From: a virus
Taxonomy: Duplodnaviria; Heunggongvirae; Uroviricota; Caudoviricetes
IMG/VR virus record: IMGVR_UViG_3300006734_000990
Length of the DNA: 64,000 nucleotides
Direction: 5' to 3' (one strand)
Below, one piece after another: positions 46,645 through 48,683 of this stretch; position 1 is the first letter of the stretch; the number at the start of each line of letters is the position of its first letter. The notes below the pieces were generated by a model, which was not told the origin of the DNA, ran no database searches, and saw only the letters and a list, made by a program, of their open reading frames with translations. The translations under genes were made by a program, and so were the position numbers.

Positions 46645-47850
46645 TCAGGGCTCGGGTGTCTCGGCTCCGGCCCGGGCGCGCGCCGCTTCTACACCTGATC
46701 CATAAACCTCATATTTGTCTGCTGTCTCGACCATCACCGATATGAGCTTGTCACCTGTGCAGCGCCCTTCGAAAAATACCATGCCGAGATGCGCAATCCG
46801 CGAAATATTCGCAGCAAGGTCAGAGGGTACGGACCCGAAGCTTTCACCAAAGACAGGCTTTTCGGGTGTTTCACCCAGAAACCCATTCGCACGGTCCACG
46901 GCTTCATCATCGATGATCCGCAACGTCGAGAAGGTATCGATGACGTCCCGATTGTATTCAATCTCGGAAATCTCGCCATCAGCAGCTTTACAGCCGCGGT
47001 AGATCATGCGGTCGATCGCATCAACGACGTCATCGACCTCGAAGTCGATCTTGTCCGAAAGCCATTCATCATAGCCCAGGCTGGTATCATCGTTGTCGAC
47101 CTCATAGCGCCAGTCCTCCCGCGGGAAGAGCTTGTGTCCTTCTTCATTGTTTTTGAAGGTCTCGAGGTGGGTCTTGATCGTATTGTTCAGGGTCATGGTG
47201 CCTCCGGGGGTTTGACTTGCGCAGAGTTTATCCTCAGGCCCTGAAAACCCCGCCGCCTCCGTGCCAAGAGAGATCAGCTTCATATCGAGATCCGAAACGT
47301 CCCCTGGATGCAGGATGATCTCTGCCTCCCCGCGATCTGTTAGATAGGCCACCACCTGTGTTTTCGGTACCAGCAAGCTGGCGAGCCAGGCTCCACCGCT
47401 GCTGCGTGCGAAGCTCTTCGCAAAGCGCGCCGCGATATCCGCGGAGGTGCTCCAGCTGTGGCCGGCTGTGACGGCTCCCCGCGCGCTGGCTTCATCGCTG
47501 CCCTCGACACCGCGCCAGATACGGATGGGGTCCGGCATCACAGCCAGATCCTCGCGATCCTTTTCGCTCATCATGTCCTGACAGTTGCCGATGTCCGCCG
47601 CGAGCATTTCAGCCCAATAAGGGCTGTCCTCTGGTAGGTCGATGTTGACCCAGACATGGCGCACCAACTCCCAATATTGTGCGGGCGTGTCGTTGAAATG
47701 CCCATCGTTAAGGAGGTCGATCAGGACCTCTGGCCGATAAGGTTTTTCGTGATGCAGCAGGTAGGACAGTGTCTTACCTGCTGCCAGCACAGCCATGGCT
47801 TCACGCTCTCGCTTGGATAGTAACTCGCGGAGGGGTACCGGGAAGGCCAA
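46645..47850 (-). CDS. putative mono-ADP-ribosyltransferase (R-S-E clade) N-terminal domain protein, 401 aa
   Basis: IWRGV (aromatic-Arg), GHSWSTSAD (STS), RGEAEIILHPG (ExE followed by hydrophobics) in the canonical order with S-to-E spacing about 41 aa. Confidence 0.5.
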   Translation of the reverse strand: MAFPVPLRELLSKREREAMAVLAAGKTLSYLLHHEKPYRPEVLIDLLNDGHFNDTPAQYWELVRHVWVNIDLPEDSPYWAEMLAADIGNCQDMMSEKDREDLAVMPDPIRIWRGVEGSDEASARGAVTAGHSWSTSADIAARFAKSFARSSGGAWLASLLVPKTQVVAYLTDRGEAEIILHPGDVSDLDMKLISLGTEAAGFSGPEDKLCASQTPGGTMTLNNTIKTHLETFKNNEEGHKLFPREDWRYEVDNDDTSLGYDEWLSDKIDFEVDDVVDAIDRMIYRGCKAADGEISEIEYNRDVIDTFSTLRIIDDEAVDRANGFLGETPEKPVFGESFGSVPSDLAANISRIAHLGMVFFEGRCTGDKLISVMVETADKYEVYGSGVEAARARAGAETPEP

Positions 47851-47987
47851 GGGGAAGGGGCATACACAAAATCGGTGATGGAAGATGTAAATGCCGCTGT
47901 CACCGGCTCCATGCAGTACCGCTGCAGAGCCTGAGGAAGATCCTGCGGCGTCGGATAGATGCTGTAGTCCCCCAAACCACTCACCTC

Positions 47988-48683
47988 TCAGCTCCCAGAG
48001 GCAGCAAAGGTACGGTTGAAGGTCTGCGCAGGCTCCGTGAGCCGGTAAAGCGCGGCTGGGCGCTTGCTGCCGACTGTGCGCTTCTCTCCGCTGTCCTCTA
48101 TCATATCGAGAGCCGCGATCTTGCGCCGGAAAGAGCTTGGATCGATCTTGGACCCAAGAACGATTTCATAGGTCCGATGCAGCTCTGGCAGGGTGAAGAG
48201 ATCATCCAGGAGTGCCGCGGGCAGGGAGGAGTAGGCGCCTTTGCCGCGCAGCCGCGCGACCGCATCCTCGATCATCTGTTTGTGGTCGAAGGCCAGATCC
48301 GGAAGCCCTTCAACATCCGTCAGCAGGACATTCGGGTCATCTGGCAGCTCCAGCTTGGCGCGCGGCACCAAGCCCAGATGTGCGACGGAGACCGACCAGC
48401 CGCGCGGATCCCGGTCTGGGCCCGAATAGGTCTGCAGCTGCTCGAGGTAGAGGGTTGGAAGCCCGGCCTTCTCCCGCAGGATGCGCTGGACCGCCTCAAG
48501 GACGCCCTTATCCTCGTCTCGATGAACGTACCCTCCCACAAGTGCCCAACAGCCTTCAAAAGGCGCGTTTGGCCGCCGGTGCAGCAAGACTTTCAGACAT
48601 TCCTGCTCAATGGTCAGAAGCACACCGTCGACTGTGCAGATCGGATTGCGCTCGGCGTCATGCGTGGTCTGAGGGTCTGGCAT
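47988..48683 (-). CDS. Nudix-hydrolase-fold protein with C-terminal extension (NrtR / ADP-ribose pyrophosphatase-like)
   Basis: GGYVHRDEDKGVLEAVQRILREKAGL approximates Nudix box G(x5)E(x7)REUxEExGU, degenerate. Confidence 0.5.
   Translation of the reverse strand: MPDPQTTHDAERNPICTVDGVLLTIEQECLKVLLHRRPNAPFEGCWALVGGYVHRDEDKGVLEAVQRILREKAGLPTLYLEQLQTYSGPDRDPRGWSVSVAHLGLVPRAKLELPDDPNVLLTDVEGLPDLAFDHKQMIEDAVARLRGKGAYSSLPAALLDDLFTLPELHRTYEIVLGSKIDPSSFRRKIAALDMIEDSGEKRTVGSKRPAALYRLTEPAQTFNRTFAASGS

Follow-up and report, generated by a model that had tools for sequence, protein, structure and literature searches.

Gene organization of the nrtR-effector locus

This paper describes a locus of two adjoining genes on a stretch of 64,000 nucleotides (nt) of viral DNA (Caudoviricetes; IMG/VR record IMGVR_UViG_3300006734_000990), the whole of which is referred to as the window. 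Both genes are located on the minus strand. The upstream gene, nrtR (47988..48683), encodes a protein of 231 amino acids (aa) in which Pfam, NCBIfam and PDB comparisons recognize a Nudix-like sensor domain with a degenerate box and an NrtR winged helix. The downstream gene (46645..47984), termed the effector gene here, encodes a predicted ADP-ribosyltransferase (ART)-like domain followed by a helical C-terminal domain (C-domain).

As sequenced, the window carries an open reading frame (ORF) of 401 aa (46645..47850, minus strand) beside the 231-aa Nudix ORF (47988..48683, minus strand), and the first-pass annotation of this DNA treated the 401-aa ORF as the protein. The ORF is present, but homolog and DNA alignments show it to be the tail of a frameshifted gene of 446 aa (46645..47984, minus strand) and not the gene itself. 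All six close homologs retrieved by a word-indexed protein search have 45-48 additional N-terminal residues, MSGLEDYSIYPTPQDLPQALQRYCMEAGDSGIYIFHH..., and the first 26 of these are encoded in another frame of the window, in an ORF at 47721..47984 that begins with GTG. In a DNA alignment with three related loci, the window is short of one G. The gap is located between 47907 and 47906 (minus strand), where GGAGGCC has become GGA-GCC, and it divides the gene into an 87-aa ORF (47721..47984) and the 401-aa ORF. When this single G is restored, an uninterrupted ORF of 446 aa is obtained, and no further lesions are found. Compared with relatives, the ratio of nonsynonymous to synonymous substitution rates (dN/dS, omega) is 0.13-0.20 for the repaired effector gene and 0.03-0.13 for the Nudix gene; purifying selection is acting on the repaired effector gene. 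Because no other lesions accompany the frameshift and the dN/dS of the repaired ORF is low, the frameshift is either very recent or a sequencing error, and the window copy is thus either a very recent pseudogene or a product of such an error. Programmed frameshifting was considered and rejected, since GGAGCC is no slippery site and the frame is intact in all relatives.

The GTG start of the effector gene lies 3 nt past the stop codon of nrtR, and its Shine-Dalgarno sequence, GGGAG, is contained in the 3' end of nrtR. Downstream of the effector gene follows a convergent gene. nrtR and the effector gene form a tight two-gene operon.

The Nudix protein is a member of the NrtR family

In Pfam, the 231-aa protein matches NUDIX (PF00293, 1.8e-8) and NrtR_WHD (PF21906, 1.5e-21). 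The NCBIfam model NF050029, "ADPR responsive repressor" (ADPR, ADP-ribose), was matched with 1.9e-46, but the score of 158.6 bits is below the 400-bit equivalog cutoff; by sequence, the protein is a member of the NrtR family and not an NF050029 equivalog. A phmmer search of the PDB aligned residues 13-218 with Shewanella oneidensis NrtR (soNrtR; 3GZ5, 9.3e-40), and AraR was found with 5.9e-32. The two-domain architecture of NrtR, an N-terminal Nudix-like domain and a C-terminal winged helix, is present over the full length. The first-pass annotation had described a Nudix-box protein with a C-terminal extension, upstream and co-directional. This is what the window encodes, except that the box is degenerate and the extension is the NrtR winged helix (PF21906).

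Compared with the signature GX5EX7REUXEEXGU, the box of the window protein reads G51-x5-E57-x9-R67-I-L-R-E71-K-A-G74-L. RE has changed to RI and EE to EK, so that two catalytic glutamates are lost, and two residues are inserted; the intact signature of ADPR pyrophosphatases is not present in this protein. The same kind of perturbation can be seen in the aligned soNrtR sequence. soNrtR, with its perturbed Nudix signature, has no detectable ADPR pyrophosphatase activity, and ADP-ribose releases NrtR from DNA (Rodionov et al., PMC2330246). The degenerate box, the full-length architecture resembling that of soNrtR and the inactivity of soNrtR make an enzymatic role in immunity unlikely. The earlier proposal that the Nudix protein is an immunity enzyme processing ADP-ribose or NAD is therefore not upheld. 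The protein is read instead as an NrtR-type transcription factor whose ligand is probably ADP-ribose.

Predicted fold and active-site motifs of the effector

An AlphaFold2 model was built for P0004, an intact 263-aa homolog, from an alignment of 104 sequences. The model is confident (mean pLDDT 92.9, pTM 0.86). The values tabulated with it are 7.5 for KptA/Tpt1, 7.3 for diphtheria toxin, 6.6 for TreX, 6.2 for both PARP15 and CNFy, 6.1 for exotoxin A, 5.8 for LT, 5.7 for TreTu, 5.6 for pertussis S1, 5.5 for IcmQ, 5.4 for AcrIF11, 5.3 for RES and 5.2 for ParT. A fold search of BFVD returned only proteins of the same family or uncharacterised ones. The model contains the split beta-sheet NAD-binding core of the ART fold. 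The predicted minimal core occupies P0004 residues ~150-240, with the order beta1(153-161)-alpha-beta2(177-179)-alpha-beta3-beta4-beta5(222-224)-beta6, and corresponds to 47260..47538 (minus strand) in the window. In the model, R lies in beta-1, S-W-[ST] in beta-2 and E-x-E at beta-5, which is the canonical R-S-E order.

The active-site residues of the window effector are R113 in an IWRG motif (47512-47514), S132-W133-S134 within SWSTS (S132-W133-S134-T135-S136; 47449-47457 for the first three) and E175-x-E177 within GEAEIIL (47320-47328), all on the minus strand. R113, S132, W133, S134, E175 and E177 of the window correspond to R158, S177, W178, [ST]179, E220 and E222 of P0004. Among the 104 homologs, G159, [ST]179, E220 and E222 are conserved in all 104, W178 in 103, and R218 is nearly invariant. 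R158 is retained in 91 (88%), and S177 in 93, with Q or A in the others. The relatives read SWSIS, SWSID or SWTLS at the serine motif. Since the conserved motif is S-W-[ST], the literal S134-T135-S136 of the window is coincidental. The spacing from R to S is 19-21 residues in the family, and in classical toxins it is longer.

These observations bear on the first-pass annotation, which had read an R-S-E signature with an STS motif in canonical order and spacing. R, S and E-x-E are present and conserved in the canonical order, but the literal STS is not conserved and the R-to-S spacing is short. The call of an ART fold finds support in the model, in which the motif residues are on the expected strands. 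This reading is supported by the predicted structure together with motif conservation across the family.

Ahead of the core, an N-terminal alpha/beta subdomain of ~150 residues (47539..47984, minus strand) was delimited by column conservation and the secondary structure of the model. It is specific to the family, carries the motifs HHP, HE[RK]PYR, W105, VWxDxE and W124, and has no counterpart in the matched ART structures.

Extent and distribution of the ART-like family

No meaningful match of the 401-aa protein was found in Pfam, NCBIfam or PADLOC. In PHROGs, effector residues 14-190 match phrog_4776, a family of unknown function (3.3e-23), and only families of unknown function were matched. 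None of 104 diverse family members matches any Pfam family, ART families included, and sequence and profile searches of the PDB with the family gave no ART match. A profile-profile alignment (hhalign) with nine sequences of T4 ModA/ModB (PF26816) brings the motifs yRG and S.[ST]....A..FA into register. This alignment is weak (E 0.0015, probability 16.7%) and extends over 47 columns that cover motifs I-II only.

An exhaustive HMMER search with a profile of close homologs found 2,909 representatives, each standing for a cluster at 50% identity, at E<=1e-3 and 998 at E<=1e-10. Most members stand alone, with a length of 220-280 aa. Of the top 150, eight form part of giant proteins (2,000-3,700 aa); in the four of these that were scanned, arrays of helix-turn-helix (HTH) domains, pentapeptide repeats or a domain of the Zeta-toxin type were recognized. 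With tblastn, the family was found in 103 phage records, comprising 100 mycobacteriophages (including LeBron gp117), Gordonia phage Octobien14 and Ruegeria phage RpAliso. It was also found on 24 plasmids, among them Agrobacterium pAt conjugative plasmids and plasmids of Salipiger, Rhizobium etli and others. The annotation of these phage and plasmid members is always hypothetical. The N-terminal part of the effector is thus one representative of an extensive, unnamed protein family of phages and plasmids with a predicted ART fold.

One distant member has been assayed. LeBron gene 117 showed mild toxicity, scored 1 of 3, in a systematic overexpression screen (PMC13148394). Because gp117 is only mildly toxic, this result argues against a potent toxin that needs dedicated immunity, at least for this distant member.

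The C-terminal helical domain

The ART core is followed by a low-confidence linker (47200..47259, minus strand) and an all-helical C-domain (46648..47199, minus strand) with the motif HKLFPRxDWRYEVDNDDT at its N-terminus. The two parts are fused in the window and in the related loci L001, L012 and L015. In L002 and L003 the gene is split at the linker into separate genes for a 263-aa ART protein and a 183-aa C-domain protein, which overlap by 4 nt. The C-domain also exists as a standalone protein of ~180 aa. It directly follows nrtR in L178, which has no ART domain, and in L180 it occurs alone, adjoining methylase and SNF2 genes. About 90% of the top 150 family members have no C-domain. The interdomain arrangement is undefined in the model of the fused protein (pTM 0.64), and a fold search with the C-domain gave generic helical bundles only. 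RpAliso gp159, encoded downstream of a family member, was considered as a C-domain homolog and found not to be homologous.

Pairing of nrtR with the effector and with other genes

nrtR directly precedes the ART-like gene in the window and in L001 (a 426-kb contig of Sulfitobacter sp. 1A13353), L002/L003, L012, L015 and L013. In L013, NrtR is 60% identical and the ART only about 36-38%. The ART family is absent from all 159 other NrtR loci from metagenomes and genomes (159/159), and no other family member examined in phage, plasmid and large-contig loci has a Nudix neighbour. The adjacency of nrtR and ART is limited to one Sulfitobacter-associated clade.

The cargo behind nrtR varies from ART plus helical domain to helical domain alone or other genes. 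L178 retains nrtR and the C-domain without the ART domain. In L097, a metagenome-assembled genome of Methylobacteriaceae, positions 2339-3798 hold a J-domain gene, the palindrome treated below, nrtR, then an unrelated 218-aa gene and a gene for a YbaK-type aminoacyl-tRNA editing protein. Since L178 and L097 carry other cargo behind nrtR, the ART is best seen as one among several cargos that can occupy a slot under the proposed control of NrtR. One clade does show the pairing, but it is not obligate. The YbaK-type cargo of L097 is again a translation-quality-control function.

Divergent from nrtR, a J-domain-like gene (48809..49846, plus strand) accompanies this nrtR clade more constantly than any other neighbour. 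Its 345-aa product has an HPD motif in the J-domain-like N-terminus, and its C-terminal part weakly resembles a kinase (Pfam DnaJ, 6.7e-4; phrog_3043, kinase, 1.4e-4). It is 48% identical to the neighbour in L178 and, over the full length, 36% identical to that in L097. The next gene (49925..50848, plus strand) encodes a 307-aa protein of phrog_2971, whose function is not assigned, and is a possible second member of the NrtR regulon. A DVTGSM motif read by eye had indicated a vWA protein; this was not confirmed by Pfam or the PDB.

A candidate NrtR operator

In the divergent promoter region between nrtR and the J-domain gene, an imperfect palindrome at 48765..48787 (consensus TTAACTTGCA-N3-TGCAAGTTAA) is a candidate NrtR operator. 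It overlaps a promoter-like TTGCAT-N17-TATATC and is conserved where the flanking sequence has diverged. Palindromes of 21-23 bp are located upstream of nrtR in the window, L001, L002, L003, L012, L015 and L178. A second candidate operator lies at 49864..49880, 45 nt upstream of the 307-aa gene, with TTGCAA-N17-TATACC, and L001, L002 and L015 have it at their orthologous positions. Allowing <=3 mismatches, the 17-mer of the palindrome occurs at four places in the window, giving 8 strand matches compared with 0.82 expected, a number reached in 0 of 100 shuffles. Two of the places, 54520 and 44843, have 3 mismatches each and were not counted as operators.

Additional evidence comes from L097, which has an independent nrtR of 49% identity. 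A perfect palindrome, plus one overlapping match with 2 mismatches, is located 45 nt upstream of this nrtR, and L097 holds the only <=2-mismatch match in 1.03 Mb of other NrtR loci. NrtR sites are typically palindromes of 21 bp, with a core of GT-N7-AC reported in most groups. The candidate operator fits NrtR sites by geometry and differs from them by sequence, its core being TG-N7-CA.

The copy at 54520 belongs to a separate arrangement on the plus strand (54520-54690), where the 3-mismatch palindrome is followed by a short ORF (~18 codons) and by CCCGCCCCTGAGGCGGGTTTTTTT, a strong terminator-like hairpin. This hairpin is located just upstream of a pair of tRNA-Glu genes and could represent a leader or attenuator.

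Proposed model and alternative explanations

The gene structure, the frameshift, NrtR membership, the predicted fold, the conservation of motifs and operator and the variable cargo were computed here; catalysis by the effector, repression by NrtR, the ADP-ribose ligand and the target are inferred. With moderate confidence, we propose that an NrtR-type, probably ADP-ribose-responsive repressor controls an ART-type effector on a large, Sulfitobacter-associated mobile replicon. The Nudix domain of NrtR, having lost its catalytic signature, would serve as a ligand sensor, most probably for ADP-ribose, and the winged helix would bind the 21-23-bp palindrome at the promoters of nrtR, the J-domain gene and the next operon. 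Residues 150-240 of the effector would form a minimal ART fold with the signature R / S-W-[ST] / R-G-E-x-E, and its most likely activity would be NAD+-dependent mono-ADP-ribosylation of a host macromolecule. Judging from the genomic company of the family, the target may be the translation or tRNA apparatus. A rise in ADP-ribose, whether from host NADase defences breaking down NAD+ or from a side reaction of the ART, would release NrtR and turn the cassette on. The signalling pair that the first-pass annotation had offered as one option survives in an altered form, as an ADP-ribose-sensing repressor controlling an NAD-consuming effector and not as a Nudix enzyme with its partner.

Several observations weigh against this proposal. 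The effector gene is frameshifted in the window copy. Neither the window protein nor any of its 104 relatives has a significant profile link to a curated ART family, and the hhalign probability to the Mod proteins is low. In 13 of the 104 homologs, K, Q, H or C stands in place of the motif-I Arg, a variation that is unusual for R-S-E enzymes. The core of the palindrome is not that of most NrtR sites, and its overlap with promoter-like hexamers means that it could be partly a promoter motif. NrtR occurs without ART in L178 and with unrelated cargo in L097, so the coupling could be incidental placement. Certain NrtR-family proteins sense ligands other than ADP-ribose; AraR senses arabinose.

A dead pseudogene in the window, leaving a pair without current function, is the most serious alternative, although we think it somewhat doubtful. 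The deletion follows codon 26, so that translation from the authentic GTG ends at 87 aa, and the 401-aa ORF has only a TTG start with no obvious ribosome-binding site. On the other hand, the lesion is single, the repaired ORF is full length with the low omega given above, and the loss of one base in a short run of G also resembles a sequencing or assembly error. It is rather unlikely, in our estimate, that the ART-fold domain is something other than a protein Arg-ART, such as an RNA- or tRNA-end enzyme like KptA/Tpt1, an NADase, or a binder of NAD or ADP-ribose. The recurrence of tRNA and translation genes nearby (PTH2, aminoacyl-tRNA synthetase (aaRS) paralogs, KptA, tRNA arrays, CCA-adding enzyme, tRNA_edit) would suit such a function, as would the dispensability of the motif-I Arg in 12% of members and a conserved R/W-rich N-terminal subdomain that could bind nucleic acid. 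However, the signature is of the R/S/E-x-E type and not the Arg-His-Arg-Arg tetrad of KptA-type enzymes, E-x-E is invariant as in R-S-E transferases, and the motifs align, if weakly, with those of T4 ModA/ModB; neighbourhood in large, gene-dense elements is weak evidence.

Two explanations start from a toxin. The first-pass annotation had suggested an effector/immunity pair, in which the Nudix protein protects against an ART toxin by hydrolysing ADP-ribose, NAD or the modification. The two genes are indeed adjacent, co-directional and almost overlapping, their adjacency is conserved in 6-7 related loci, and Nudix enzymes can cleave ADP-ribose. Such a pair is nevertheless highly improbable: two catalytic glutamates are missing from the Nudix signature and its spacing is altered, as in the inactive soNrtR, a complete NrtR DNA-binding domain is present, most of the family, whether in phages, plasmids or large contigs, has no Nudix gene next to it, nrtR is found without ART in L178 and L097, and gp117 is only mildly toxic. 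A toxin-antitoxin system would combine a strongly toxic component with an obligately linked neutraliser, but most members are singletons and gp117 scored 1 of 3. The same mild toxicity counts against a tripartite, toxin-antitoxin-like module in which the C-domain inhibits the ART toxin in cis or trans and NrtR is the regulator. Fusion of ART and C-domain in four loci and their fission in L002/L003 imply that they work jointly, and the retention of nrtR and C-domain in L178 is what orphan antitoxins show. We regard this module as unlikely, given the lack of the C-domain in about nine tenths of the top 150 members, its solitary occurrence in the unrelated context of L180, the generic helical bundles returned by its fold search and the undefined interdomain arrangement.

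The proposed repressor-effector model can be extended to an inducible anti-defence regulon, in which the NrtR of the mobile element, a huge phage or megaplasmid, senses the destruction of NAD+ by host NADase immunity (TIR, SIR2 and the like) and de-represses a counter-attack cassette, so that the product of the defence itself would trigger the response. This extension is distinctly unlikely. It would treat the ART of the unnamed family, its helical partner, the J-domain/kinase-like protein and the tRNA-editing or translation-repair genes as exchangeable cargo.

Comparison with known systems and significance

The T4 ModA/ModB proteins (PF26816) show several likenesses to the window family. They are encoded by phages, are small (~200 aa) and contain an [LV][WY]RG motif, a serine strand with A(+8), F(+11) and A/S(+12) behind it, and an E-x-E after which come hydrophobic residues and then P. 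The R-to-S spacing is also short, with 24 residues in ModA compared with 19-21 in the window family. In contrast, the distance from S to E-x-E is ~67-69 in ModA and ~43 in the window family, in which the ADP-ribosylating turn-turn (ARTT) region is much shorter, and the ~150-aa N-terminal subdomain of the family (HHP, HERPYR, VWxDSE) is absent from Mod. No Pfam match to PF26816 was obtained with the window protein or its 104 relatives.

S. oneidensis NrtR (SO1979, 3GZ5) resembles the window protein in its two-domain architecture, full-length similarity, perturbed Nudix signature and ~21-bp palindrome upstream of its own gene. The window nrtR differs in its location on a mobile element beside ART-like and J-domain genes and not beside NAD biosynthesis genes, and in the core of its candidate operator, TG-N7-CA as against GT-N7-AC. 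Systems in which an NrtR-like sensor is linked to ADP-ribosylation-cycle genes, and in which ADP-ribose is presumed to be the signal, are known: the Nudix-HTH/WYL ADP-ribosylglycohydrolase (ARG) systems (PMC9503650) and Streptomyces nrtR-draG (PMC2330246). In these, the regulator is paired with erasers (ARG or DraG) and they are read as host systems, whereas the regulator of the window is encoded on a mobile element, ahead of a putative writer (ART). The first-pass remark that a Nudix partner had not been described for ART toxins is tempered by these nrtR-draG loci and Nudix-HTH ADP-ribosylglycohydrolase regulators. The pairing of NrtR with a writer and the ART-like family itself appear undescribed in the literature searched.

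ART-PolyVal (PF18760), AcrIF11 and RES/ParT share with the window family the distribution in phages and plasmids, the occurrence in giant multidomain proteins and adjacent ART-PolyVal genes. The window family has no profile match to them and no dedicated antitoxin in most loci, and the active-site signature of the RES family differs from that of the window family (PMC9503650).

If confirmed, these findings would add to the ART superfamily a large family without a curated model, comprising about 2,900 clusters at 50% identity. They would also give a testable function to "hypothetical" genes such as gene 117 of the cluster L mycobacteriophage LeBron, RpAliso gp160, the pAt members and the domains of giant polyvalent-like proteins. 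Moreover, an NrtR-type small-molecule sensor of a mobile element would be seen to control an NAD-consuming effector, and NAD/ADP-ribose signalling, a central currency of phage-host conflict, would be linked to gene regulation on the side of the element. With its conserved candidate operator and variable cargo, the regulatory model lends itself to direct testing.

Genomic setting

The window region had no megablast match in phage and plasmid collections, and IMG/VR scans with NrtR and P0004 found no relatives. Close homologs are carried by Sulfitobacter litoralis and by two 375.8-kb contigs assembled independently of each other; this suggests a replicon of about 376 kb. The contigs that carry the relatives measure 110-426 kb.

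Unannotated genes are densely packed in the window, which also has several genes related to translation. These include three aaRS paralogs, one each of the class II Pro/Thr/His type (22050-23339, minus strand), the Trp/Tyr type (30892-32028, plus strand) and the Glu/Gln type (55128-56093, plus strand), two tRNA-Glu genes (54694-54858, plus strand), PTH2 (42677-43144, minus strand) and a HipA-like kinase (34992-36326, plus strand). Kinases of the HipA family are known to target GltX and TrpS, so the presence of surplus aaRS genes next to a HipA homolog on one mobile element is suggestive. Other members of the ART-like family keep similar company: on contigs of 300-570 kb, PTH2, a GluRS-like gene and KptA are found near them, LeBron gp117 adjoins a tRNA array, and the RpAliso homolog is ~4 kb from a CCA-adding enzyme. 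Translation-related neighbours, namely PTH2, GluRS-like genes, KptA, tRNA arrays, CCA-adding enzyme and tRNA_edit, recur.

Several minor observations can be added. In locus L182 (1396-4162), the family member P0186 is located within 1-3 kb of two ART-PolyVal genes (PF18760), RecA and an N6/N4 methylase, a setting that resembles an early or anti-restriction region. Downstream of the second candidate operator in the window, an adenylosuccinate-synthetase-like gene is found at 51660-53207 (plus strand; Pfam 2.6e-45), the product of which has 425 aa in relatives. Elsewhere on the plus strand, an 865-aa protein (56130-58727) has a weak PcfJ-like match, and a 499-aa protein (62081-63580) contains RTX calcium-binding repeats.

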